Source: Felis catus (taxonomy: Eukaryota). Taken from it: 64,000 nucleotides of DNA. A model generated the notes under the pieces. That model was not told the origin of the DNA. It searched no databases and saw only the letters and a program-made list of their open reading frames with translations. The position numbers were made by a program, and so were the translations under genes. The stretch is from the NCBI RefSeq assembly GCF_018350175.1, contig NC_058382.1, positions 49,788,001 through 49,852,000 of the forward strand. Direction: 5' to 3'. Each line of letters begins with the position of its first letter. Position 1 is the first letter of the stretch. This document shows positions 2,638 to 64,000 of this stretch, piece after piece.

Positions 2638-5600
2638 TATTAGCCTCTGGAGTTGGGCATGAAGGCAAGTGGCAAGGAAATTTCACTGTCTCCTTTCTGA
2701 AAAAACTTAAGTGATGCAACTACGGGTCATTTTTACTTTCTTATTTGTAATTAAAAAAGCATACAACAATAAAAGCTTTTGTATCTCAAGAAAGAAAATG
2801 AAAGAAGAAAAACCATTTTTCACTTTCTAAACACAACGGCAGAGCTGAAAACAAAACAAATATTAATTAAAGAAAATGCAGAAACTGTATAGTACCTAGA
2901 AATCTCATGCAAGAGACTAACCTAATTAGGCCAAGAAAAACGTAAAGCACTCAATCTACCAAATCAAGGAAACCTTCGTGTTCCTTGTATGCAGCCAAAG
3001 AAGAACCATTTCCGCGGGGAGGGGGGCGGGGGTTCTGCCCTCTAGCGTACACTGAGAGAAGCGAAAGCAAATGAAACTATCAGTGCAACACATTAGCGTT
3101 TTATTAGTTAACCAAAATAGTTTCACTTCATTCCTAGAGCATCACAGTTTTCTCTTTGAATGAAGATGTCCACAACCTTGTTTCCAAATCAATTTCCAAT
3201 GATCATACTTAATAAAACTCTGTGGACATAATAACTTCGGCTGTCTGTTCTTCCCTACACTCCCAGCAAAGCACCCAAAGCATTTTCCTGATAAAGGGTA
3301 TAGGATATAGCAAAATAACGTTTTAAAAGTTTCTAACACGTATAGACATCTGACTTTTAAACTTAAAAGATTACTGAAGCTTGTTGAAACTGTGACTCGA
3401 CACTAAGAGCAAAAGGAAGAAGAACACTCTGTAATAAAGTTCAAATCCCTAAGGATTTTCTAAGAACACTAGAATTTGTTCCACCCCGGGGCAACCTTGA
3501 AAACCAGTAGGGGCACCTCTTAGGTTCATAGTATTTGCTGTAGGTATTCTGTTCAAACTGACACAGGTTACCCCATCCCGGTAACCACAAATGAAAAATG
3601 TTCTTGCTTTGAAAGCTTTTCTATGTCTGAGATTGCTTTAGATGCTCACATTGGCCGGCACTTCACTGTTTGACCCAAATGGTCAAATATTCTACCATTC
3701 TCCCCAACCAAAAAACAAAAAACAAAAACCGAAACCAAAAAACTACTACTAGTCTCTCCATTCATAATTACTCCAGTTCTGAGAATAGCCTGGAATAATC
3801 TCTTCAAATCAAGAATGTGAATGACATAATCCTTAATAAATTCAAAATATTCCAACTACTGACGGGAAAATCTTTCAATAATTAATTTCACTTCAATGCC
3901 AACTCATTTACTCTATACCTGCAACACCTAGGGAGGTATATTGAAAAAGCAAGTTAAGAGTAAGTTACAACTGAATGAAGTTGAGTATTTAGCATCCACT
4001 GAAGGACATGAAGGTAAAAGTCCAGTGCAGAGTAGTCTTGCCCCAGTATAAAACACATCATTCTGGAGCTGACAAGTAAGTTAACAGCAGGACCACCAAC
4101 ACTGCCAGAATCAATCATTTCTACTGTCACACTGGGTCCCTGAAATATCATCTGAAAAGCTATTTCTAGCTAGCCCTACCCTGGAACAAATGACGGCCAG
4201 AAGAAATGCTCTGAACTGAGATCCCCTACCCGGCTCTCCTGGCAACGCCCTCACATCAGCTGCCTACGATGGAGGACTGAGCCCTCAGTACGAACCAATG
4301 ACAGAAGCGGCAATAACCATTACCCCAGCTGACTGATCGCATCTTGTCCACAGCTTCATTGTCTGCTGACAGATTATCAATGTACAAACACACCTGGAAC
4401 TCGTTTTTAAAAACGTGCTGTCCCTGCAATCTCCTAAAATAGTAACAAGACTGAAAGACAGCACAGGAAACCCAGATTAGCCATGGTTAATGGGGAAAAG
4501 GCCTACAGGGGAAAAGGGAGGAAAGAGTCATCCAATTTCCCTAAAAAAATTACAAAATTCAAAATAGCTTTCAAAGAGTCCCTCATCAGTTATAAAGCTG
4601 AAGAGATACTTCTTACCCCCCAAAAAGTCCAACCAGGTGTGTAAGAAAGAATGGTTGCATAACACAGTGGCTGAGAGCTCAGGCTCGGGTCTCAAATGGA
4701 TCTGGACTGGGATCCTGGCTCTGCCATCCATTATCTACGAGATCTCCACAAGTTAACGGCACCTTCCTGGGCCTCAGTTCCCTGGTCTATGAAATGGGCA
4801 CAGAGTTAGCACCCACCTCTTAAAGTATTTGTGTAGATTAAATAATACATATAAAACACTTACCACTGTGCCTTAAATTTGGTAATTTGTCAATAGGAGC
4901 TATTTATCCTTTTAAAAAAAGGTAAGGAACACTTAACAGGCTGCATGAAAAGATAATACGTCTGATATTTAATCTAAAGAACTGGTCCCCAAAGGAAACT
5001 GACCTGGTCATTAAAGGGAAACGTGTCATCCCCGTTCCTGACTACGGGAACCCAGCAGGTGACATAAATAATGAAGCAGCTGAGTCGGGACCAGGAAAGG
5101 ACAAACCCCATCTATTCTGCTCCGGCTGACTGCTGCTGTAAGAAAAGAGGGAGGGCAATGGCACGACTTCTCGTTTCTCAAGAAAAGCCAGGAACCCAGA
5201 TTTTTATGTCAACTCTCCTGATTTTTAAATAATGGCCGAATAAAAACATCTACGGACAGACTTGGTCCACGAACTGCCAGTTTGTGAATGCCTGCCCGGG
5301 AATGGAGTCTCAAACTAGAAACTGAAGAAAAGCCCAGTAGTTATATAACCAAGGGACTTCAGCTCCCTAAAACAGCGCGTCTCAAAGGGCACACTGTTGG
5401 CATTTTGGAAAAGAAAATTCTTCTCTGTACAAACTGTCCTAAGCACTGCAGATATTTAGTATTCCTGAACCCCACCCACTAAGTACCAGTGGTCTCCTCA
5501 AGTCTTGTGACAACCAAAATATCTCACCACACATTTCTGAACACCTCCTACTAGCAGCACCACAACCACTAAGAATAACAAAGTTAAATTCAAAAGTTAG

Positions 5601-6019
5601 TGGGAAGGTCAAGAACATCTATTTACAAACAGCAATAAAATAAGAACAGGGCCAGCCCTGAGTCTAAACTAAACTAAACTACAAATCCCAAATTATCATC
5701 AAACAGGAAATCTCACTAAGTAGAAAGCTTGGAGTTGGCTGTGGGAACAAATCAAAAGGCTTAAATCCCTCTCCCTACTTCTAGAATTAAGACAGAAGGA
5801 AACTGCCTCATTTTTTTTCTAGTCATTGCTTTAGTAGTATTACTGAACTTCACAGTTTTCCACTGATCTTGTTTCTAACAGCCGGAGCTTACGTACAGAA
5901 CAGTTCATGCTTCAAAGAAATTACCGTGGAAGAAATCTGGGCACCCACAGCACCCACCCTTCGGTAACATTCCTGGATTTTTCTCTTATTGCTCATTCTC
6001 CTATTCAAGAGCATGTCCA

Positions 6020-31300: not shown

Positions 31301-33901
31301 AAGATCAAATCCCATGCAGTTACTATGACAAAAAAGAAAAAAAGGGTAAGAAGCAAATAACATCCTTGTAGATAATAAAGAACAAAATGAATACATCTTG
31401 TCCAAAGACAGAGCTTCCCATCACCTTTTCAGTCCCCCATGCTTAAATCTGAGCCGAACAACTATGAATCACTGAAAATCTTCTAGTAAAGCCAAAAGCA
31501 AACATATAGGGTGAATAAAAATCACCTTAGAGAAATGTTTCGTCACATTCTGAGGCTAGCAATACCTGCTACTAAAACAAGACAAGGAAATTACAAGAAA
31601 ACTACAGACCAACATCCCTCATAAACAAATGCGAAAATTCTCAACAAATACAAGCAAATAAAATTCAGCAATGTATAAAAAGAATTGTCCATGATGACCA
31701 AGTGAGTTTTATCCCAGAAATAAAAGGCTGTTCAAAATTCAAAAATCAATCACTAACTCACCATATTAGGAGAAAGAAAAATCACACATAATCTTTTCAA
31801 CAGAGGAAAAGCATATGACAAAATTCACTTCTCAGCAAATTAGGAGTAAGGGCAACTTCTTTAACCTGATAAAATGCATCTGTAAGGAGCAGTATATGCA
31901 GACTGCCAGGGTTCAAATCTTACCTCATCTACTCTGTAGCTGAACAACTTTGGGCAATTTGCTTAATTCTCTGTGCTTCAACTCCTTCGTCTGTAAAACG
32001 TGGAGAACAGCACATATTCATCAGTGTTATGTGATTGAGCTAGTAATGAGTTAGTCCCCGTAAAGTGCTTAAAGCACACACACAAGGCATGTGTAATGCA
32101 TAGCTAACATACTAGTGAAACACTGATAATTTCCTCTTAAAATGGGAACAAGGACGTTCACTCTCACCGCTCCTACTCAACATCACACTTGAAGTCTTAT
32201 CAAGAGCAGAAAGGCAAGCAAAAGAAACAAAAGGCATACCAATTGTAAAAGAAAAACTAAAATGGCTTCTATATACAGACATCATGATCTCTCTTTTTTA
32301 ATTTATTTATTTTGAGAGAGTGAGAACACAAGCACACACGTGAGTGGGTGAAGAGGCAGAAAGAAAAACAGAGGAAGAATCCCAAGCAGGCTCCATGCTG
32401 TCAGTGCAGAGCCCAACATGGGGCTAGATCCCATGAACTGTGAAATCATGACCTGAGAAGAAATCAAGAGGCGGATGCTTAACCAACTGAGCTTACCTAG
32501 GTGTCCCTCATAATCTCTTTTATTTGGAGAGGAAAGGGTGAGGGTGGCCTTGGAACTGTTAATTCTGGTGATGGTCACACAACTCTAAGCATTTCTCAAA
32601 ACTGATAGAACAGTACATTGAAAAGAGTAAATTTTACTGTATGTAAGTTAAACATTAAAAATTTTAAATTAGTTTTAATATCCACAGAGCACTAAGATTC
32701 AGCACTATGAAACGAGAACATGCTATAAAAAAGGACTATTCGAGGAACAACAAAGTTATTCAAATGTAAAAATATGAAAGGAAAAAATACAGGAGTTGAA
32801 GATACTGATAATTTCCCATGAAGTGGAAAAAAGTCAAGGGTTAGAAAATAGTCAAGGGGGGGGGCGCCTGGGTGGCTCAGTCGGTTGAGTGGCCGACTTT
32901 GGCTCAGGTCATGATCTAGCAGTCTGTGAGTTTGAGCCCCGCATCAGGCTCTGTGCTGACAGCTCAGAAGTTAGTAAAGCAATAAAGCAGCTCCTTTAAC
33001 ATTCTAATTGAAAGCTATCATTATAAATCCTAGAATTATTATTACAAAACAGAATTCTATACCAAACAAGCACTAATTAGGCCTTAGGGTAACATCATTA
33101 TTTTTAGAAATACTGTTTTCACACCTTGAATGTCTACTATGCATCATCCGTGCTCAAGTAGTTGAGCATTTATTCTCATTTCGGTGGAACATGCTAAGGA
33201 AAAAAAGACAACACAGGACCCAAGAAGCGGAATCCAACAGAAAAGGGAGATAGATGAATGGAACACCCAGAGGGGTGATGGTGACAAAGATACTAGGTTT
33301 AAAAGTGGTAAAACCAAGGCAAGGCGGAAGTCAGAAGGCAAAGACAGGACTTCAAGATGAAAGTAAAAGATTATTTAATGAATCGAATTACCTTGGGAGA
33401 TGATTTTTATACAATTCTGAGAATTTAGGGTCAAATTAATAGTAAGGACATAGACACCTAAGCAACAACAAAATGGCAATTATTAACTCCACAGAAAGCA
33501 AGTAGTGTAGGAAAAGCAATCTCGGGATCTATCACCTGGTTCAGAGCTGAACTTGGGGTTGTTCACAGTCAGTACAAAAATGTAAACATGGAATACTGAT
33601 CTAACCAAAATTAGACATGGTGACAAGGGCAGGCTGGGGAGTTGGGGAGGGCCTGATGGTGGAAGGGTGTGTGTTGGGAATGAGGGGGAAGAAGAGGGTA
33701 TTAAAATAAGACCTACCGTGCCTGGGTGAAGCCCACACACAATGAAAATACCAAATTAAAAACTGGAAAGCAGTTTCTTCCACGGGGGAATGAAGCAGGA
33801 TGAAGGGTGATGGGAACCATTAGTTTTCAAGACAGGCCTTTTAGAAATATTTGACTATGTTTATGTGGATGCACAACTTTCATTAAAACGAAAACTAGCT
33901 T

Positions 33902-34122
33902 GGGGCGCCTGGGTGGCGCAGTCGGTTAAGCGTCCGACTTCAGCCATGTCACGATCTCGCGGTCCGTGAGTTCGAGCCCCGCGTCGGGCTCTGGGCTGAT
34001 GGCTCAGAGCCTGGAGCCTGTTTCCGATTCTGTGTCTCCCTCTCTCTCTGCCCCTCCCCCGTTCATGCTCTGTCTCTCTCTGTCCCCAAAATAATAAACG
34101 TTGAAAAAAAAATTAAAAAAAA
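33902..34122 (+). mobile_element. Young felid SINEC_Fc in CFDP1 intron 1
   Basis: CpG-intact GGGGCGCCTGGGTGGCGCAGTCGGTTAAGCGTCCGAC head, (CT)n, polyA. Perfect 17-bp TSD AAAACGAAAACTAGCTT (33885-33901 and 34123-34139). Confidence 0.95.
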
Positions 34123-34599
34123 AAAACGAAAACTAGCTTTCAGATAACCACTCTGGCCATCACAAGACCAATGTTGGTGGACAAGAATGGAAATGGTATC
34201 GGGCAAACCAGTTGGGAAGCTATGCCTTAATCCTAGCGAAGAACGGCAGTTTGGTAGCAGCGAGTGAGATTGGCGAGGAAGCGGTCAGAAAACGATTTTC
34301 CACGTAGACACAACAGCACTTATTGACTGCTTGAACCAGGAGAGAAAGTAAGGATGGATGAGTCCTAAGGGTTTTTTGTTTGATGGGAGCGACTGTGTGG
34401 GTAGATCCTTTCAATGAGATGGGGCAGTCTGAGGGAAGGCGCAGGATGGGGAAGGGGTAGGTTCGAATGACCCCTTTAAGTTTGACAAACCTACGCCAAA
34501 AAGAGGAAGGCGGGGGGGGGGGGGGGGAGGAGCTGAAAAGAGAGTAACAGGTATACGTCGCAAAAGGACAAAATGCATCATACGTGAACTTTCTAATAA

Positions 34600-35400
34600 C
34601 TAGATCCCATGCGAGGGCAGAGAGTAGACAGATTTATCTTGGCCGTGGTGCCGGCTGGCAAGCCCCTCGGGACGAAAGGTCTGACGACAACATCCTACGC
34701 TCACACTGCCTTTCACGGGAGTTCAGTACTAGCGCGGTGCGGGTACCGATAGCCACCGCCAGCGTCCCCAGATCGGGGTGGTGCTCACGTGCCGGTTCCC
34801 GCGCTCCGGGAAGGGGCGGAGGCTCGAGCCAGGCCGCGGGCAGTGGCAGTGCGAGACGCCCGCGTGCACGCGTCTCGGCCCCGCACCACCGCGCGGAGAA
34901 AGCACGCGGGCGAGGATGCGGGGCTCGCGCGGTGGGGACGCTCGAGACCGGCGCCACCGGGGGCCCCGGGCCACGCACGCCGGACCAAACACGCCTCACG
35001 TGAAGCGCGGGGCGGGGCAAGCCTCCTCTCGCCTGCGGCCCAAACGCTCACCCGACGGCACGTAGTCTTCGTCCTCCTCTGAGGTGGAGAAGTCTTCAGA
35101 ATCGAATTCCTCCATGTTGCTGCTGCACCGGGCGGACGAAGCCACAGGACCGCAGCAACTGCCCCCAACGGCAAATCTCTAGGGAGAGACCATAGAGCTG
35201 CGGTGGGGGAGCCGGCGGCTGGGGCGGCCCCCACAACGTGTGCGCGTGCGCAAAAAGGGCTACGTATTCCAAACGCGACACTTCCGGGCCAATGCCTAGC
35301 GCCTGGCGCTGCTGTGGTGGTTGACGGAGCACAGGCTCCGCGTGGAAGCGGTGCCTGATGGAACTTGTAGTCTCCAGCACTGTCTGGACGCTTCGATTTA
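34600..35400. promoter_or_regulatory. CpG island / CFDP1 promoter with bidirectional-promoter motifs
   Basis: Dense CpG. NRF1-like TGCGCGTGCGCA at 35241-35252, ETS/GABPA CACTTCCGG at 35279-35287, CCAAT at 35289-35293, and ZNF143/SBS-like ACTACAAGTTCCATCAGGCACCGC on the minus strand at 35348-35371. Confidence 0.85.
35052..35115 (-). CDS. CFDP1: CFDP1 (craniofacial development protein 1 / BCNT) coding exon 1
   Basis: Minus strand ATG GAG GAA TTC GAT TCT GAA GAC... = MEEFDSEDFSTSEEDEDYVPS(G), the recognisable CFDP1 N-terminus. 64 nt followed by a GTGAG donor, inside a CpG island. Confidence 0.97.
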
Positions 35401-35733
35401 ATAAATGTGCTTAAACAAAATTATATGTCTGTGGTATTACAGTTGACGTTCGTTATTTACAGCTTGGTATTTTCGAATCGCTTACTTGCTTAAACTTACT
35501 GTAACCCCAAAATCAATATTCGCGGTGCTTTCTGGGGTTATTCGCGGACATGCGCAGAGGATGAAAAGCTGGAGTCAACCAGCGGTGCGGGGTACTAGCA
35601 GAGGTTGAACAAGGCAGACAATGGGCTTTCTTGCCTCATCTCTCATGCTGTAAATAATTGTCCTATTTGCAGTCTATTTGGTGCCACGTTTTTTGCGTTT
35701 CCGTGCTTTTTGTTGGTGATTTTGCTGTTAAAA

Positions 35734-37515
35734 ATGACCCCCAAGCGTAGTGGTGAAGTGGTGCCTAGTGCTCCTAAGCGCAAGAAGGCTGTCATGTGCC
35801 TTATGGAGAAAATACGTGTGCTAGATAAGCTTCGTTCAGGCATGAGTTGTAGTGCTGTTGGCCGTGAGTTCAATGTTAATGAATCAACAATCCGGTACAT
35901 CAAGAAAAAGGAAAAGGAAATTCGCCGATCTGTACGTGAGGCTGCTCCGGAAAGTGCTAAAGTAACGTCTATAGTGCGTGAGGAAGCTATGGAAAAGATG
36001 GAAAAGCGGCTAAATTTGTGGATTCATGAGATGACAACCGATAAAAAAGGCGTGGTGGACAGCATTGTCGTGAGGCTGAAAGCCAAAGAAATTTACGGTC
36101 ATGTAACCCAAGGCCAGAAAAACGTTAAACCTTTCTCCGCCAGCGCTGGCTGGCTTGCACGTTTCAAAAGGCGATATGGTGTGAACAATGTTAAACTTGC
36201 AGGTGAGGCAAGTTCTGCAGATCGGGAGGCTGCAGAAGAATTTAAAAAACATTTGCTGAGTGTTATACAGGACAAAGGATACGTGGAAGAGCAGGTTTTC
36301 AACGCTGATGAGACTGGCTTATTTTACAAGGACGTTGGCAAAAGAACCTATATAACACAAATGGCCTGCAAAGCCCCTGGCTTTAAATCATTCCAAGACT
36401 ATGCAACCTTGCTGTTGTGCACTAATGCCAAGGGCGACTTCAAGTGCAAACCTCTAATGGTATACAGAGCCCAGAATCCACAAGCACTTAAAGGGAAAAG
36501 CGTCAACCATATGCCTGTCCATTGGAGATGGAACAAAAAAGCGTGGATGACATCCAGCTGGTTCCACAACTGCTTCGTACCGGAAGTTGAATGCTATCTC
36601 CAGGGCAGAAACCTTGCCTTCAAGGTTTTATTAATTTTGGATAACGCCCCAGTCCATTGCTGTGAAGAACTCAAAAATGCCCACCCCAACGTAGAAGTTC
36701 TTTTCATGCCCCCAAACACTACCTCTCTCATCCAACCCCTGGATCAGGGTATAATAAAAGCTTTCAAGGCACACTATACCAGGGAGCTTTATAGCAAAGG
36801 TTTCCAGGCTCTCGAATCCAACAAGGAAACTACCATGATGGACTATTGGAAGTCCGTTACCATACGTAACGTTATTGATTATGTTGGGACAGCCTGGGGC
36901 AGCATCAAACAAGCTACTATCAATAGCTGTTGGAAAAATGTTTGGCCAGACTGTGTGCAAAATTTCGAAGGCTTTGAAGGTGTTGCAGAAAGCATAAAGA
37001 AGAGTGTCGAAAACATAATGCATATCGCACGGCAAATAAGTGGAGAAGGCTTTGACGACATGAAGGAGGAAGATGTGGAGGAAATTTTGGCAGAGAAGGC
37101 AGTAGAACCCACCAACGAAGACCTGGACGAGATGGCAAAACAAGGCATTGGGGTCGGCAGTGATGAGGACGGCGATGAGAGTCAGCCTAAGACTTCAATA
37201 ATTGACCCTCTTACAGCGACCAAAATATCAGAATGGAATTCTGCCTTGGAAAGAATTTTCAATGACATGATAGAGTGTGACCCTATGCTTGATCGCAGCC
37301 TCAAATTTAAGCGCCTCACCTCCACAGCATTTGCCCCTTATGCCGAGATGCTTAAAGATTTGAGGCAAAAAGCTAAGCAGACAAGGCTGACCCAACTTTT
37401 CGAGCCAGTTTGGGAGGAAAAATCGCCGACTCCGTCAACAAGTCACGAGAGGCAAACTCCTGAGGTTGAACTGCCAAATGTTGACATGCTTCCCTCTTCC
37501 TCTTCTGCAGAATAA
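35734..37515 (+). CDS. Intact pogo/Tigger (CENP-B/TIGD-like) transposase ORF, 593 aa, intronless
   Basis: First in-frame ATG at 35734 (AAAATGA); the ORF track's 35605 start is a TTG. Contains HTH_psq-like EKIRVLDKLRSGMSCSAVGREFNVNESTIRYIKK, CENP-B HTH ...FSASAGWLARFKRRY, and DDE_1 motifs VFNADETGLFYK, LLILDNAPVH and PPNTTSLIQPLDQGIIKAFK. No stops or frameshifts over 1782 nt. Confidence 0.93.
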   Translation: MTPKRSGEVVPSAPKRKKAVMCLMEKIRVLDKLRSGMSCSAVGREFNVNESTIRYIKKKEKEIRRSVREAAPESAKVTSIVREEAMEKMEKRLNLWIHEMTTDKKGVVDSIVVRLKAKEIYGHVTQGQKNVKPFSASAGWLARFKRRYGVNNVKLAGEASSADREAAEEFKKHLLSVIQDKGYVEEQVFNADETGLFYKDVGKRTYITQMACKAPGFKSFQDYATLLLCTNAKGDFKCKPLMVYRAQNPQALKGKSVNHMPVHWRWNKKAWMTSSWFHNCFVPEVECYLQGRNLAFKVLLILDNAPVHCCEELKNAHPNVEVLFMPPNTTSLIQPLDQGIIKAFKAHYTRELYSKGFQALESNKETTMMDYWKSVTIRNVIDYVGTAWGSIKQATINSCWKNVWPDCVQNFEGFEGVAESIKKSVENIMHIARQISGEGFDDMKEEDVEEILAEKAVEPTNEDLDEMAKQGIGVGSDEDGDESQPKTSIIDPLTATKISEWNSALERIFNDMIECDPMLDRSLKFKRLTSTAFAPYAEMLKDLRQKAKQTRLTQLFEPVWEEKSPTPSTSHERQTPEVELPNVDMLPSSSSAE

Positions 37516-37906
37516 ACTCCACCTACCTCCCCCGTGGTTATCGTGGGGCAAACCAAGGTCAAGAGGTTTAACCACACTGTGTGCTGTAGCATCACACATC
37601 CTGCAGTTCCATCAACAGTAAGATTTTAGTTAATGTTTTAATGAAATCTCTAACGTTTTCCACACTCTATTTGCATTACTGTGAAATATACAGTATGTGT
37701 TGACGTACTCTGTGTTTATGTGAATATTGTATGTTATACTGTGTGTTTGCTACATGTACTACATATGATTACTGCATGTGTGTGTCTGACTGAGGAAAAA
37801 AGTAATACAATCTCAGTATTGTAGAGAACGTTACACAAAAATGCTGTAATTGAAACCGTGTTTTATTATATAAAAATACTGCACATAATTATTGTGAGAA
37901 AGATGT

Positions 37907-37912
37907 ATTAAA
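37907..37912 (+). terminator. Candidate polyadenylation signal (ATTAAA) for the Tigger ORF
   Basis: ATTAAA about 390 nt after the stop codon, inside the element's 3' arm, preceded by TGTA. Inference only. Confidence 0.3.
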
Positions 37913-40370
37913 TAAGGTGTTCTTGAACAGAAACACACATGAAACAAGATTATGTACTGATCAGTTGACAAAAAAGATTGTGACCGGAGACTAACAGGAA
38001 CCCAACCCTGTACTGCTAACTGAATGTGCACGATGACTTTATAACCATAACTACTGTGAACGAGAATCAACTGAATCCTAGAATTCAGACAACACCCACG
38101 TGCATCCTTCAAGTTAATCCACATGGAAGTACGGCCACCTATGGTCTCTATCATTTTATCAGATTAAAAATATTTCTTAATTAGACTCCAATTATGGGAA
38201 GCAGTAATCAGAAACAGATACACAGGAGACAGCAACAATTAACATCCTTTTGTTCAGGTTTAGGGTTTTTCTCAGCTGAAAATTGCTCTTCATTGTTACT
38301 CTATACTAGTCTGGGTTTGAGTCACCCAGTCCTAGCGTTAATCTAAGAAATAGATGAACACACCTGTGATTAAAAGGACATTATGGTGAATGGGTGACAG
38401 GCATTAAGGAGGGCACTTTTCAGGATGAGCTCTGGGTGTCATATCTAAGAGATGAATCACTCACTGGGTTCTACTCCTGAAGCCAAGACCACACTGTATG
38501 TTAACTAGCTTGAAAATAAAAATAAATGTTAAAAAGGGGCACTGTGGTGGCACTATAGCAGCAAACTTTTAAAAACAGCCTAATTGGGGACACCTGGGTG
38601 CCTCAGTCAGTTAAGTGTCCAACTTCAGCTCAGGTCATGATCTCGTGGTTCATGGGTTCCAGCCCTGCATCGGGCTCTGTGCTGACATCTCAGAGCCTAG
38701 CCTGCTTCAGATTCTGTGTTTCCCCCTCTCCCTGCCCCTCCCACACTTGTGCGCTCTCTCTCTCTCTCTCTCACTCGCTCTCAAAAATAAAATAAAACAT
38801 TACAAATAAATAAATAAAAACAGTTAATTGAAACATAATTCACAGACCATAAAATGTACCCATCTAAAGTACACAGTTCAGGGGTGCCTGGCTGGCTCAG
38901 TTGGTAGAGCATGTGACTCTTGATCTTGGGGTTGTGAGGTCAAGCCCCATGTTGGGTGTAGAGATTGCCTAAATAAATAAACTTTAAAGTGCACAACTCA
39001 ATAGTTCTGGTAAATTCAGACTTGTGCAGCCATCACATAAAAAAATGAGCCTCTGACCCATTTCTCCCCAATCCCCAGCCTCAGGCTAATCTGTCTCTAT
39101 AAACTTGCCTATTCTGGACTTTTCATGTAAATGGTATTATACAACATGTGGCCTTTTGTAACTGTCTCCTTTCACTTAACACATCTTCAGAGGTAATTTC
39201 TCTTTGGGATGTACCTGTGGAATTGCTTGATCATATAGAAATCATATGCTTTACCTTTCGGGGAACCGCCAGATTGCTTCCCAAAGCAGCTGTGCCATTT
39301 TATAACCTCAACAACAATGCCTGAAGGTTCCAGTTTCTGCACACCTTGCCAAACCCCTTGTCTTTTTTATTAAAGCCATCCTAGTGGGTGTGAGTGGCAT
39401 TTCATTGTAGTTTTTATTTGTACTTCCCTGATGACTGATATTAAACATCTTTTTATGTCTTTATTGGCCATGATATATGTTCTTCAGAGAATGTCTATTC
39501 AGATCTTTTGCCCATTTTGAAACCAGGTCATTTGTCTTTTTACTTACTTTTTTAACATTTATTTATTGTTGACAGAGAGAGACAGAGCACGAGCAGGGGA
39601 GGGGAGGGGCAGACAGAGGGAGACACAGAATCCGAAGCAGGCTCCCGGCTCCGAGCCGTCAGCACAGAGCCAGACGCGGGGCTCGAACCCACGAACCACG
39701 AGATCATGACCTGAGCCGAAGTCGGACACTTAGCCCACTGAGCCACCCAGGTGCCCCATCATTTGTCTTTTTATTATTGAGTTTTAAGAGTTCTTTATAT
39801 ATTCTAAATAGCCGTCTCTTATAAACCATAGGACTTGAATAATTCCTTCTATTCTGTGGCGTGTCTTTCTACACCCTTGATGGCATCCTTTGAAGCATAA
39901 CATTTTTAAATTTTGACCAAGTCCAATTTATTTTTCTCTGGTCCCTTGTGCTTTTGGGGTTCTATCTAAGAAGGCTTTGCCTAACTCAAGATCACAAAAC
40001 ATACTCTCGTTTTCTTCTGAGCTTTATAGTTTTAGTTCTTACATTCGGGTCTGTGCTTCAGGTAGATCGTCCTTATGGGAGGATAAGAGAAAAGTAGATG
40101 TGAAATTAGGACTCAGTATTTGGGAGTTTACCATGCCAGCCTCTTTCCTTGGACACTGTAAATGGACCCTGCAGTGACAAACTGGGATGTAGCTTTTTGC
40201 CCCCGGGGAAAAGGATGCGTTAGAATTCTCCAACACACTCTCCCCCAGCATCATCTCATTTCTCCCAGTCTCTTTGCAGCTCACTGTCACTCCATGCATT
40301 TGTTCAAATTCAGTTTCCAGCCACTTTAAGGATAATCAGGGTAGGAGCTAGTTTCCATTATTCCAAATAG

Positions 40371-53957: not shown

Positions 53958-56399
53958 ATTACTGCTGTGCATGTTTCCTTCCCAATTTCTTATTCTTGTT
54001 GTGGGTGGCAGCCAAATGCCCCCAAGCCACCCTTGGCATTGTCACCGATGGCTATACTAATTCTTTGCTCAATTTGACTCACCTAAAGCTTCAATTAACA
54101 CTATATTCGACACATACCTGAATTAGGACACCTAGTTCATGCTTTGAATGAAAGTATCAGGTGTGCCCCATCTAGGGCTCAATGCTTATTAAAAATAACA
54201 AACGACTGAGGGTGTTTTGGCACTTTTGCTCTGGTGAAAAACAGATTGCTATAAAAAGTTTCAAACCGTTTGTGAGACTTTTTTTTTTACCCCCCGCCGA
54301 ACAAGATCTATCTTCAGAAAAATTTCATAATACTGTTGAAACTGGTCTGTTTGACAGGGTTTGCCAAATTCTGCTAAGCCAAGTTAGATCATGAAATATG
54401 GGGCATAAAGCGATTACATAGTAAGGTCCCAAACTTAAAAACTAAATATATGTAACATAAAGAGCTAATATATGTAAAAATACAGTGTCCAGAAACCGCC
54501 CCTCGAATACGTGTGCCCCCACCAGAGCTCTGGTTCCCACACACCTCTCCTGCACCCCGGCTCAGTGACAGCAGCTTGGTCTTTTCAGCCTAAGCCCCCT
54601 CGCACTCCACCGCCGCCAGCTTGACCCCACGCCATGGCACAGAACCATGCTGTCCCCTTCCAAAGCAGTAACCCCATCTTCAATCCCACAGTCCTCACCC
54701 GCTACTCCCCAAATCACGTGGAGACTCTGACCTCTATCCCACCACCGAGCGTGTGAAATTCTATGATGGCACCAGGAACGCCAGCGTCCCAGGGTGGACA
54801 ATGGGATGCAAAATCTGCCTCTGAGAACTCAGAGCAGTTGCCATTCTGGCTGCTGGCTGCCACAACGGACTTCAGACCCCGCCACTGAGCCGACACTCCT
54901 CTCGGGCCCTGCTGGAGCTCCCCAAGTTTTAGAGGTAAGCACTGCTCTCTGGAGCAACTCAAGGCGGTGCTGGAGCCGGGCTTCATACTGGACGCCACGG
55001 CACCATCAGGGCATTGAGCTGGGAGGTGAGGCCTTGATCTGCCAGAGACATACCAAATTGATAACTGCATAAAAGTGGGTCCGAGAGGATCGAGGCCTGA
55101 TGAGAAAGGAAGAGAGACCTCTCTCTCTGTCTCTCACTCTCTCTCCCTGCCATGTGAGGACATAGCAAGAAGGCAGCCTAAGAGGGCCCTCACCACAGCA
55201 TGGCCATCCAGGCTCCAAAACTGTGAGAAAATAAGTTTTTAATTTAAAAAAATTTTTTTAAAGTTTATTCATTTTTGAGAGATAAAGGGAGACAGTATGG
55301 GTGGGGGAGGAGCACCAAGAGAGAGGGAGACACAGAATCCGAAGCAAGCTCCAGGCTCTGAGCTGTCAGCACAGAGCCCAGTGTGGGGCTCAAACTCACA
55401 AACCGTGAGACCATGACCTGAGCCAGAGTCAGGAGCTTAATGGACTGAGCCACTTAAACCACTTCAGCCTAGGGGCATCTGGGTGGCTCAGTCGGTTAAG
55501 CGTCCAACTTCAGCTCAGGTCATGATCTCGCAGTCTGTGATTTCGAGCCCTGCGTCGGTCTCTGTGCTGACAGCTCAGAGCCTGGAGCCTGCTTCGGATT
55601 CTGTGTCTCCCTCTCTCTGCCCCTCCCCTGCTCATGCTCTGTCTCTCTCTGTCTCAAAAATAAATAAAAACATTAAAAAAAATTAAAAAAAAAACTTCAC
55701 CCTATGGCATTTTGTTACAGCAGCCTAAAACACCAACCCTCACTCCTTCCCTATTTTCCTGGTGCACAGCACCTGCCTGAGGAGGACTGCTAGGCTACCA
55801 ACCCACATCTCAATTTTCCTGAAAGCTGAGAAGCCTATTTGTAAACAAGGTGTGGCACAGCAGGTCAGCACTTCCGGAGTTTCTGAGAAGGGGAAGCATA
55901 CCGCACGCACCCTCCTACAACCTTGAGCTGCATCCATTAGCTCCATCAGTGCCTACAAATCTTATAGAACATCACTTAAGTCACATTAAGGAGGAAAAAA
56001 AGGGCTTTATTATGTTAGGTGAGTAGTCTAGTTTACAAAACACTTTTCAGATGGATGAGATTATTAAAGGACTCTTAATAGCAAAGGCAAACCCCAATCA
56101 ATAAAACACTTAAAAAAAAACTAAGCGATTTCCCTTTAACCTACTGCACCTTAATTTGCTATCTACGTAATAGCTACTTATGGATCATCACATAGTACTT
56201 TTCATTTCTTCGGTTCAATATGCTGTCAAAAATCTGTGTCTACATATCTTACAGTATTTCTTTGTTCGCTATTTCAAATCAAGCGCATTATCTTCAGCTT
56301 TGCTTACTCTGACGGCTGAAGTCCTAGCACTGCCTGATGTTGAAGTATAAATCAGAAAATTAATCTGCAACAAAAAATTATACGGGGCAATCAGATTAA

Positions 56400-56825: not shown

Positions 56826-57439
56826 AGCGCCAAGAGTTTATTCTTTCAACAATCAAGTATTTACTGAGCCCATCCCCTATGTCAGGCACTTGAGTGAAAC
56901 AAAACAAGACAAACATGCTGCCCACAAGGAGCTTATTACCTTTAAGAATCTGTTTTTCAGACAGATGGTTCAGTTAAAGGGATAAGCCACACAGACTGCA
57001 GATTCCTCTAGGTGAGTTCTTTATTAACAGAAAGGGTTTGTAATGGCTGGCTCCCTATCTAATCTCCACAACTGAGTCAACCAACTTCTAAGCAAGGCCT
57101 CAAGACCAACCAGGCCCCAGTCAGAGAAGCAGAAGAAGCCTAAGCCAAGTGGGCAGGGTGAGGCTCAGCACTCAGCCATCCTTTTAGCTGGCCCCACTCT
57201 ATCTTATGTTCCAGGTCAAACAACCGAATGAACAAGGTCAGCTTCTCTGAAGCCAGGGTTCTAAGGGAACCTGGGAACTGTAGTCCTACCTGGTCCTGCA
57301 ACTCAGTGCTGGACTGCCTTCACACTCATTGCCCATCAGCCTACATCTCTCCACACTGCCCACTGTGAGACCCCTCTCTTACTGAACCCCACCTACCCAC
57401 CATGGGGTCTATCTGGTCCCCTGCAAAATCAAATACATA

Positions 57440-60438: not shown

Positions 60439-62049
60439 ATAGAACTGCCCATAAACTCATGTGGCAGTTTCCTGTTTTCAGAATACTTTCTGAAAGCAAA
60501 ACAATTCTCATAGCTGTCATAGCTGCTATGACATAATGTCTAACTACTGTCCCAAATCCACTTATCTCGATCTTAAAGAAAAGGCAACTAAAAGATAGAC
60601 AGACTGGAGAATATTCAGCTCCAAAGTATCACCTCACATATGACTTATCGCAAAAGGATTAAGGTACCCTTTCAGCAGAGAGATCCGATAAACACCACCT
60701 TCACCAAATGATTATTGACAGCAGTGTTAGTAAAGGTACACCGTGATGTTAAAGGTCTCCTGATATAATGCACTGGGAAGTGGACATCACCTGTCTAGAT
60801 AGGATTCTAAACAAAAATGTTTAATCTGAATGTAAGCATGAAAAAAATGATCGATAAACTTAAATTATAGGACATTCTATGAAATTAGGCTGGACTCTTC
60901 AAAAATGTGAAGGAACAAAGATGGAGTAACTGTTCTAGATTCACGGAGACTAAAGAGACATGGCAACTAAATGCACAGTGTGATCCTGGATTAGATCTGG
61001 GTTTTTTCGTGTTTGGTTTTTTTAAAGAAAAAAGCTATGTGGGGAGCCTGGGTGGCTCGGTTGGTTAAGCATCAGAATTCAGCTGAGGTCGTGATCTCGC
61101 GGTCTGTGAGTTGGAGCTCCGCGTTGGGCTCTGTGCTGAGAGCTCAGAGCCTGGAGCTTGCTTTGGGTTCTGTGCCTCCCTCTCTTCTGCCCCTCCCCTG
61201 CTCACTCTCTGTCTCTCTCTCTCTCTGAAAAATAAACATTAAAAAATTAAATAAATTTAAAAAAAGATACATGCTGAAGTATTAGGCATGAAGCATCATC
61301 ACTTCGGTAACTTCCTTTCTAATGGGTCTGCAGAAAATAAAAATGTTGTGTGCGTGTGTGTATGTATGTATATACACAATTCACACACACATATATGCAT
61401 ATAGAGATAAAGCAAAAGAATGAAAATGTTAATAATGAGTCGAAGTAAAGTACTTCAATGTATCAGTATGTTTGAAAATTTCAAAATAAGGAAACACAAA
61501 CAGACTAATCTGGTCCAGCAGAACCTCCAGACTGTGTGTACATTGCATTTTTCATAGTGTGTCCAGAATGCCATAGATTTGTTGTCACGGTCAAATGTGC
61601 TCTTAGTACCTTTTGAAACAACGTGAGCTGCCAGATTATCATTTTAGCTAGAGTTCCAAACTAACATCTGCATCTGCCCCAACGTGGTTATTATCATCAG
61701 CTGTCCCACAAAGCTGTCAGGGAAACTACTAGGCAGGTAAATACACCCCAAGTCCCGGGGGTCCTCTGAATGGCGCCCGGCAGTCGCTTCCCCGTGGAAG
61801 AGAAATCACAGGTGCCTTGTTTATGACTGCAGTCAGTAAGTAATCCAATCGTTCTTCTTTTGCAGGTCCCTGGCCCAGTTCTGAATTGTTTACTCCCAGT
61901 CACCTTTGCCGGACAACCCAACCTCACCCTTCCATCGCCACTGTTCTGTCTCCTGGCCTTTTAAAGGTCCAACACAGAACTGCGCCCTCCCCTCAAAGCC
62001 TTTATGAGCCTTCCCCAGTCATTTCTGCTCCTCTCAGTTTTCTGAGCAT

Positions 62050-63200
62050 CGACAGCTTTCTACCTTCTTACAATTTTGAAAAAACCCTTACATCAGGCCC
62101 AGCAGAAGCTCCGGCGGGCGTTAAGGAGAGTGAAAACGCATCTGTGTCAGAGATCTCGAACGCGGGAATGGGGAATTCGGCAACAGGTCTCAGAAAGTGA
62201 TTCCTCGAAAGAGAAGCTGGCGGAGTGGGTGCGTTTGGACGCAGGTGGGAGCGATCGGCAGACAACCCGGGGGCACCCGGGGCTGGGGCGAAATTACACA
62301 CCAGGGCAGCGCGGAGTGCCGACCGCCCCTCATCCCGGCCGGGACGGTTCGGCGTCCGAGCTGCAAGAGCCGCGCGGCCGGCGCGGACCACAGCGGCCAG
62401 GCGCCTCGAGCCCCTAACTAGCAGGCGCGACCGCCTCCGGGGCTCTGTCGGGTCCCGGTCTGACCCTGGAGCTTCTGGAAACTACAAACAGCAACATCAC
62501 CTCGGGTGGAGGCCGAGCTCCCTCCAGTGACGGGTCCACTCGCGGCCGCTCCCTCCGCTCTAGCCCCCAGAGCAGAGTCGGAATGGTCCGCCAGAGTTGC
62601 CGGCGGGGAAGCGACGGAGGAAGAGCTACATCCCCCAGCTCCCCGCCGAGGGAGCGGGAACCCTCCTTCCAGGAGGGATACAGCCCCGACAAAGTGGGAC
62701 AGCGGGGCGAAGAGGACACCGCCGCGAGGGAAGGGGCGCCCCCCGGCCGGGCGGCGGCGACGGAGCGCAGAGTGCGCAAGCGCGGGGCGGGGCGGGGCCG
62801 GTACCTGGGAAAGAGCAGAGAGAAGTGGAGTTGGGGCACAGGGTCCCGTTGCCCACCCGCGGCACGAGCTTCAGGCTGAGGATCTGCTGTAGGAGCCCGG
62901 CCGACCCTCCGCTGCCGCCGCTCCCCTCGTGCTCCATCCCGCCGCCATTCACCGCAGAGAGATGTGGGGGAGCGTCCGAAGTGCTGCCGAGGCTCGCTCG
63001 CTCTCACTCACAGACCAAAGCGCTCTCTGACTCTACCTCCTCAGCGTCACCCTCGGATGGGGCCCTCTTCCTCCCACCTCAACGGCTCAGCCAAGTGATG
63101 GGACCTTCCTCCAATCACAGGACGCTGCAGATGGCAGAGGCGGGGCGAGAATTGTTCCCTCCCCTGACGTTGCGTACGGCTCACCGAAACCTGGCACCCT
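62050..63200. promoter_or_regulatory. CpG island / TMEM170A promoter
   Basis: GC/CpG-rich block around exon 1. CCAAT at 63111-63115, GC box GGCGGGGCG at ~63139, CRE-like TGACGT at 63165-63170. Confidence 0.85.
62805..62937 (-). CDS. TMEM170A: TMEM170A coding exon 1
   Basis: GGGATGG strong Kozak context; MEHEGSGGSGGSAGLLQQILSLKLVPRVGNGTLCPNSTSLCSFP(E). 133 nt, GTACCG donor, CpG island. Confidence 0.96.
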
Positions 63201-64000
63201 CGGGCTACGCCCCCTACTGGGCAAGTGTCTCCTGCTCCAGAGTAGGATGTGCTCTGCTCTGCCCTTCTCTGCAGCGCCACCTATAAGACAGTAGGGGAAT
63301 TGCATACCCTCCCCAGACCCGGCTCGTAGATTTCAAACGGATCTAGCAATGAGAATCAGATGGTTCAGCAGCCAGGTGAAGGAGGCTGGAAGACATCACC
63401 AATACCTCCAATATTTGGAAGGAAAGTGAATTTTTTGAAAGCTTAACTTTCTTTAAAGTAAAAAGCCTTGCTTGCAGGGACGCCTGGGTGGCTCAGTCGG
63501 TTAAGCATCTGACTTCAGCTCAGGTCATGATCCCACAGTTGGGGAAATCCAAGCTCAGCATCTGGCTCTCTGCTGTCAGCACAGAGCCTGCCTGCTTTGG
63601 ATCCTCTGTTCCCCTCTCTCTCTGCCCTTCCCCAGCTTGTTCTTTCTCTCTCTCAACATAAACGTCAACAAATTTTAAAGAAATGCATTGCTTGCAAAGT
63701 TCATAGTATTTTACATAATATTAATTCAAGAACATTAGCAAGATTGTTTATTAGAGTTCCCTCTTGAAGATTTTGTTTTGAGAGCTAATGTCCGTTCCTC
63801 AACACTGCAACTGGGATTTTGCATCAACCAAGAAACATCTAAAATGGAAATAGTAAGTATTAAGAAAAGTCATGAAATATTTAATGCTATCTTCTGGTAC
63901 ATTTCTCAGACCATGAGAGTGTGTAAGAAGTGGAAGAAACATTATTTTAGGGTTATATAACAATCAATAGTGTATCACATTAGGAAACATTATTTTGAAT

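Follow-up and report, generated by a model that had tools for sequence, protein, structure and literature searches.

CpG island promoters were described by Kalitsis and Saffery in 2009 as inherently bidirectional, and transposable elements (TEs) inserted antisense to them were proposed to be spared from silencing, to retain their sequence and eventually to turn into genes (PMC2777200). Of the 63 human TE-derived genes that these authors counted, 23 form head-to-head island pairs, and so do 8 of the 13 derived from Tigger elements; all have a CpG island, which is often lengthened (PMC2777200). Their worked example is the TIGD1-EIF4E2 pair, in which TIGD1 was reported to be primate-specific and to be without one of its terminal inverted repeats (TIRs) (PMC2777200). 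Here we analyzed a 64,000-bp stretch of the Felis catus genome (RefSeq assembly GCF_018350175.1, NC_058382.1, positions 49,788,001 to 49,852,000, referred to as the window in the rest of the text), in which a Tigger-type transposon carrying an intact transposase-derived open reading frame (ORF) lies head-to-head with CFDP1. As in the TIGD1-EIF4E2 pair, an intact Tigger ORF with its triad lies antisense to an island promoter, and the element has added to the length of the island; in contrast, the partner here is CFDP1, the element family and its age differ, the gene occurs in several eutherian orders, and both TIRs have been kept (PMC2777200). We consider sharing of the CFDP1 promoter to be the best reading of this arrangement, with a probability of about 0.6. 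The mechanism is already published (PMC2777200), and the locus constitutes a further example rather than a new mechanism; CFDP1 is absent from the main text of Kalitsis and Saffery (PMC2777200), and our literature search found no description of a CFDP1/Tigger-derived gene pair. The locus would be a clean, old and unusually complete example of island promoters letting transposons escape silencing and become genes, as TIRs, catalytic triad and host promoter motifs all remain readable.

Another point of comparison is the set of 12 domesticated pogo genes recognized by Gao et al. in 2020, from which TIGD1 and TIGD1-like sequences were excluded as multi-copy or narrowly distributed and pseudogene-like (PMC7386202). 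The window gene shares with CENPB, JRK, JRKL, TIGD2-7, POGK and POGZ the CENP-B_N/HTH_Tnp_Tc5/DDE_1 domain set, a single-copy state and apparent purifying selection (PMC7386202). It differs from them in falling within the excluded TIGD1-like group (PMC7386202) and in being found, among the species named, in some eutherian orders only; furthermore, among the 77 genome matches listed, its identity to any other intact pogo ORF over long matches does not exceed 39%. The gene carries the RefSeq label TIGD1/TIGD1-like and is distinct from primate TIGD1 by position and distribution, as it adjoins CFDP1 instead of EIF4E2 and occurs in non-primate orders.

On the minus strand of the window, the coding part of a first exon extends from an ATG at 35115 to 35052, where it is directly followed by a GT donor, and translates as MEEFDSEDFSTSEEDEDYVPSG, which we take to be the N-terminus of CFDP1. 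Our genome-wide searches, which covered 2.43 Gb in 71 contigs (with the window at C39:49788001-49852000), revealed a single BCNT-domain (PF07572) match, located at C39:49712707-49712853 on the same strand and 110 kb downstream of exon 1, which fits the assignment of the minus-strand exon to CFDP1. The transposase-derived ORF starts on the plus strand at 35734 and ends at 37515. The original prediction, which had the transposase capturing a bidirectional CFDP1 promoter, placed the two genes head-to-head at a CpG island, and both this order and its distances hold: the two ATGs are 619 bp apart, and 325 bp separate the ATG of CFDP1 from the left end of the element. The gap between them (35116-35439) contains the CFDP1 5' untranslated region (UTR) and the promoter motifs described below. 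The pair shares a CpG island at 34500-35600, which runs from the beginning of intron 1 across exon 1 and the gap into the first ~160 bp of the transposon, with observed/expected (o/e) CpG ratios of 0.8-1.3 in 200-bp windows. By the usual criteria the island-like run extends from 33901 to 35600, its left end overlapping a short interspersed element (SINE); a SINE of ~220 bp adjoins the left edge of this call.

The ends of the element were set by aligning its fossil copies from elsewhere in the genome. The transposon is full-length, of the pogo/Tigger type, and spans 2634 bp on the plus strand (35440-38073). The left TIR had been predicted to begin at 35440, and this boundary was confirmed: among the 39 non-self matches to 35400-35740 that were listed (~70-84% identity), out of 344 candidates, none passes left of 35438 and 6 begin at 35438-35440. 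The right end, which had not been located before and without which the copy had not been shown to be full-length, lies at 38073 (...GAACGAGAATCAACTG). The left TIR CAGTTGACGTTCGTT (35440-35454, plus strand) and the right TIR (38059-38073, minus strand; reverse complement CAGTTGATTCTCGTT, placed by alignment of the fossil tails) are identical at 12 of 15 bases. A TA dinucleotide precedes the left end (35438-35439), and TA directly follows the homologous right end in 5 of 7 aligned fossils, where the window copy has AA (38074-38075); the element thus exhibits the TIRs and the TA target-site duplication of pogo/Tigger transposons, with TA on the left and AA on the right. Within the window, neither a repeat search for a TIR pair nor a search with a 23-mer of the left end allowing up to 3 mismatches found a partner. 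BLAST matches on the 3' side end at 38012, and the alignment of seven fossil tails resumes past this point up to 38073, because ~22 bp present at 38012-38013 in 6 of the 7 tails are deleted from the 3' arm of the window copy (37516-38073) just after 38012. This deletion explains why the right end escaped simple searches and was found only through the fossil copies.

Between the TIR and the ORF lies a non-coding 5' arm (35440-35733, plus strand). The ORF itself is intact and codes for 593 aa in which Pfam recognizes CENP-B_N (5e-9), HTH_Tnp_Tc5 (8e-13) and DDE_1 (6e-43) domains, a set that assigns it to the pogo/Tigger transposases. Residues D192, D303 and D337, presumed from motif position to be the catalytic ones, form a DD33D triad. 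This spacing lies inside the DD29-56D range given for pogo transposases (PMC7386202). An AATAAA that overlaps the stop codon (37511-37516, plus strand) is a candidate polyadenylation signal. The family counts at least 344-391 candidate copies genome-wide, with ~70-86% identity. It includes a miniature, MITE-like form: 8 of the 14 fossil loci examined share an internal deletion that joins ~35884-35891 to ~37900-37906 in window coordinates, so that the window copy represents the autonomous-type form of the family.

Several lines of evidence support well the view that the element is now a domesticated host gene rather than a recent insertion, namely the absence of young copies, orthologs across eutherian orders, and a gene tree that matches the species tree. 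In a six-frame search of the genome with 77 matches listed, only the locus itself (100%) and one paralog with 78% identity (paralog B, see below) were both close and intact. The other listed matches were at most 39% identical over long stretches, or were short fossil pieces of 54-65% identity, many of them interrupted by stops (up to 14-16 per match). Since there are no young copies in the genome, a recently active element was ruled out; the gene appears to occupy a single orthologous locus without recent transposition, and the fossils are ~70-75% identical to it. Orthologs found in the protein database are 99% identical to the window ORF in many felids (mostly 593 aa), 93% in bear (609 aa), 92% in seal (593 aa), 90% in equids (593 aa) and in minke whale (593 aa), one of at least 12 cetaceans, 86% in colugo (575 aa) and 81% in armadillo (640 aa). 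Overall, carnivores, equids, rhinos, cetaceans, colugo and armadillo have orthologs of 81-93% identity; hippo, otter, camelids, pig and marmot yielded partial proteins only. Among the close matches of this search, which covered proteins of 326-1038 aa only, none came from primates or mouse.

A maximum-likelihood protein tree of 20 rows separated clade A (the window ORF and 8 others, 9 rows) from clade B (paralog B and its kin, 7 rows), each with 100/99 support. Each clade follows the species tree, with colugo and marmot, or colugo and one further row, separate from Laurasiatheria; the tree assigns the armadillo row to neither of the two clades. Between the two cat copies, dS amounted to 0.33-0.47 versus a dN of 0.12-0.14, and dN/dS was 0.26 (NG86), 0.31 (LWL85) or 0.42 (YN00), with 0.17 for the DDE part, although part of this low ratio may date from the period of the active element, before insertion. 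Conservation within the clades is the stronger argument for selection: the path from cat to horse in clade A comprises 0.10 changes per residue, which would lie far below the neutral expectation. The triad is intact in the window ORF and in horse, whale, bear, seal, otter and armadillo, and is altered in three lineages: D3 has become H in colugo, D1 has become N in hippo, and marmot has S for D1 and N for D3. These replacements suggest either that a function other than catalysis has been conserved or that some lineages are under relaxed constraint. Internal gaps were seen in the otter and marmot proteins.

Motifs over-represented in bidirectional promoters are listed as NRF-1, GABPA, YY1, NFY and ACTACANNTCCC (PMC3082894). 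The original prediction had placed NRF1, ETS/GABPA, CCAAT and ZNF143/SBS-like motifs in the 325-bp gap, and all four are present there. The NRF1-like palindrome TGCGCGTGCGCA (35241-35252) deviates from the NRF1 consensus by one base, and the pattern YGCGCRYGCGCR that it matches occurs once in the 64 kb and in none of 100 shuffles. The ETS/GABPA core CCGGAAGTG (35279-35287, minus strand) occurs twice in the window versus 0.16 expected, and a CCAAT box can be read at 35289-35293 on the plus strand. An RRACTACAN submotif followed by an SBS-like site lies at 35353-35373 on the minus strand and reads AGACTACAA-GTTCCATCAGGC; this combination has 2 matches in the window versus 0.04 expected with the core of the pattern relaxed to YCCR. 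The SBS is an 18-bp site in which positions 3-6 read CCCR and position 12 is a C, and RRACTACAN often precedes it (PMC3082894). Here the RRACTACAN part is perfect and C12 is kept, but the core is TCCA instead of CCCR, which makes "SBS-like" a fair label. Only the longer RRACTACAN-plus-core pattern stands above chance; the shorter pattern ACTACAANTYCC, with one mismatch allowed, has 4 matches in the window versus 2.9 expected. The gap therefore resembles ZNF143/SBS-type bidirectional promoters in its RRACTACAN and SBS-like site and in its NRF1-like, GABPA/ETS and CCAAT classes, and differs from them in the core of its putative SBS (PMC3082894). The second CCGGAAGTG (55869-55877, minus strand) and the second RRACTACAN-plus-SBS site (57266-57286, minus strand), the latter with a true CCCA core, lie ~1.4 kb from each other and distant from both CpG islands of the window.

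The CpG o/e ratio is 0.90 in the gap (35116-35439), 1.00 in the 5' arm (35440-35733, 14 CpGs), and 0.85, 0.36 and 0.63 in the first 600 bp, the middle 600 bp and the last ~580 bp of the ORF, respectively, against a background of 0.27-0.32. Retention of CpGs in both the arm and the ORF had been read as consistent with germline hypomethylation, and this reading stood for the arm only. The state of each CpG of the 5' arm was compared in an alignment that included paralog B and 13 fossil segments. For 11 of the 14 sites, most aligned fossils read TG, CA or CG, that is, CpG or its decay products, so that at least 11 arm CpGs are ancestral and kept only at the copy beside CFDP1; at the same 14 sites, paralog B has kept 2 and reads TG or CA at 7. 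The locus thus provides an internal control, in which ancestral CpGs of the arm were lost from the paralog and from all fossils examined and kept next to CFDP1. This retention fits the outcome predicted by long-term germline hypomethylation, and selection on the arm would predict the same. In contrast, paralog B has CG at all of the first six CpG sites of the ORF despite CpG-poor flanks (o/e 0.2-0.3), which indicates that coding constraint explains the ORF CpGs. For this reason, the retention of CpGs in the ORF was rejected as evidence of hypomethylation.

A sequencing-run search with sampled words of 35440-37900 returned 20 runs. Three runs recorded as RNA (2 studies) contained 0.69-0.84 of the words, although an RNA run may also contain the stretch as DNA; eleven runs guessed to be RNA (6 studies, contig totals of 88-764 million letters), for which DNA content is likewise possible, contained 0.69-0.86; and six genome-sized runs contained 0.99. 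The content of the RNA-type runs suggests that 35440-37900 is transcribed. A candidate position for the 5' end comes from a 634-aa RefSeq model of the horse gene (P0004 in our searches), as residues 6-36 of its 41-residue N-terminal extension match 35130-35225 on the plus strand in tblastn (18/32 identical, E 2.6e-9). The stretch homologous to this 5' coding exon, antisense to the CFDP1 5' UTR, is only 15-110 bp away from the CFDP1 ATG; the horse model then runs into the last codons before the ORF ATG. This alignment indicates that the horse gene adjoins the CFDP1 promoter and that its annotated 5' exon falls within the island, where this exon overlaps the CFDP1 5' end, so that the horse model suggests overlapping 5' ends of the two genes. 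A RefSeq model similar to the horse one exists in plains zebra. The exon equivalent lies to the left of 35300-35450, where the original prediction had expected transcription to start.

The exon structure of the horse model does not transfer to the cat: where the ends of the horse intron would fall, the cat lacks both a GT following 35225 and an AG preceding 35715-35718, and a simple donor and acceptor scan of 35100-35740 revealed no site above threshold, an apparent acceptor near 35671 having failed. Moreover, the horse reads ...AFK-M in frame at 35730-35736, whereas the run of A before the cat ATG appears to shift the upstream frame by one base; together with one stop in the cat frame over 35130-35225, this shift suggests that the Equus N-terminal extension is not encoded in the cat.

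Building on the observed anatomy, age and conservation of the element and on the ancestral CpGs retained in its arm, we propose the following scenario. A Tigger-type pogo element inserted at a TA ~70 bp past the outermost motif of the CFDP1 island promoter, pointing away from CFDP1, before the split of the boreoeutherian orders. The unmethylated and intrinsically divergent island would have shielded the 5' end of the element from silencing, and would supply or support its transcription, using either a 5' exon that lies within the island (the arrangement of the horse model) or a start in the 5' arm. The copy, complete with its two TIRs and DD33D triad, no longer multiplies, and purifying selection has preserved its ORF as a host gene in single copy. 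Promoter capture leading to domestication, as originally predicted, is partly supported: it agrees with the head-to-head position at a motif-bearing island, with the signs of domestication (orthologs, dN/dS of 0.26-0.42, no young copies), with the CpGs of the arm, with the share of the sampled words in the RNA-type runs (69-86%), with the start of the horse model in the CFDP1 island and with paralog B as a second case facing an island; it draws nothing from the CpGs of the ORF. A number of observations weigh against this scenario. The 634-aa horse protein is a computed first-version RefSeq model that was later replaced by a 593-aa protein, and its splice sites and open frame find no counterpart in the cat. 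The core of the SBS-like site is mismatched at a highly conserved position. Synteny of the orthologs with CFDP1 is indirect and concerns the horse only. Finally, several lineages have partial proteins only and a catalytic aspartate is replaced in colugo, hippo and marmot, both of which make constraint uneven, and the A-B dN/dS may include the active-element share mentioned above.

The main rival to promoter sharing, which we judge to be about half as probable, is that the 5' arm (35440-35733) carries its own promoter and that the CFDP1 island acts only as a methylation shield, contributing neither start site nor exon. This corresponds to model D(ii) of Kalitsis and Saffery, initiation within the TE (PMC2777200). 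The models of bear, armadillo and Equus-B use in-frame ATGs of the 5' arm as their starts, which means that these mRNA models are unspliced through at least 50-120 nt of it; such a structure, the conservation of the ancestral CpGs of the arm, the lack of good splice sites in our cat scan and an AT-rich stretch with TATAT directly left of the TIR all speak for initiation in the arm. However, the 5' exon of the horse model falls in the island, and the arm of paralog B is decayed and CpG-poor while paralog B itself remains intact and conserved, suggesting that the arm is not needed as such.

It is far less probable that the element is a slowly decaying fossil devoid of gene function, whose open frame and RNA signal would be by-products of an active island, akin to promoter-upstream noise. 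A patchy distribution would suit such a fossil, since pig, camelids, otter and marmot yielded partial proteins only and none of the matches came from primates or mouse, as would the catalytic residues replaced in three lineages and the setting aside of TIGD1-like sequences as pseudogene-like by Gao et al. (PMC7386202). Yet four orders share a frame of exactly 593 aa with 90-93% identity, the gene tree agrees with that of the species and its branches are short, and dN/dS is below 1, whereas fossils of the same family have accumulated up to 14-16 stops per match. That the DNA, and not its protein, is what has been conserved, in a cis-regulatory or boundary role for CFDP1 or TMEM170A, could be suspected from the adjoining CFDP1 promoter and from the extension of the island into the element, but is the least probable explanation of all, because conservation tracks the reading frame (dS of 0.33-0.47, well above the dN of 0.12-0.14), a comparison of the paralogs shows much weaker conservation in the arms than in the ORF, and the paralog is conserved likewise at a different locus.

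Paralog B is located at C1:80601013-80602779 and has an open 592-aa ORF whose product is 78% identical to that of the window; it occupies the minus strand at ~4014-5780 of the extracted locus L011 (C1:80597000-80606999). A TA flanks its left end, near L011:6040, and the CpG island that it faces (~L011:7030-8530, GC up to 0.79) contains CACTTCCGG. Within this island, a plus-strand exon at L011:7905-7991 matches residues 66-94 of the CH domain of ARHGEF7 (PDB 2l3g) at all 29 residues, which places paralog B antisense in an ARHGEF7 intron, ~1 kb from the edge of the island. The exon was identified through PDB; a Pfam search of a 273-aa ORF over the ARHGEF7 island gave no match. Paralog B thus resembles the window copy in its transposon family, its intact ORF and the CpG island with an ETS core that it faces, and differs from it in its position ~1 kb from the island edge inside an ARHGEF7 intron, its CpG-depleted 5' arm and its replaced third aspartate. 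Its arrangement matches the variant of the Kalitsis and Saffery model in which the element inserts further away and acquires a new upstream exon (PMC2777200). Clade B is conserved in carnivores, equids and colugo, and all of its 7 rows have S or N in place of the third catalytic D.

Both A and B are retained in felids, bears, seals, equids and colugos. One could speculate that they form a co-domesticated pair, a lineage-restricted DNA-binding or nuclease system in which A perhaps still binds or cuts the at least 340 miniature fossil copies, with B having lost its third aspartate before the boreoeutherian radiation and A keeping DD33D and the TIRs; we regard this as improbable. The two conserved TIGD1-like genes, one beside CFDP1 and the other inside ARHGEF7, belong to a class that a survey of pogo genes excluded as pseudogene-like (PMC7386202). 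No intact copy of either gene was found among the named primate or mouse proteins of 326-1038 aa in our search.

Elsewhere in the window, a second CpG island at 61901-63300 contains a minus-strand ORF (62626-62937) that begins with MEHEGSGGSGGSAGLLQQILSLK and had no match in a Pfam search. This ORF may be the first exon of TMEM170A. Dozens of SINE copies of ~220 bp are scattered across the window (for instance at 33902-34126, 38587-38843 and 39537-39757), and these also cross-matched the flanks of the fossil loci.

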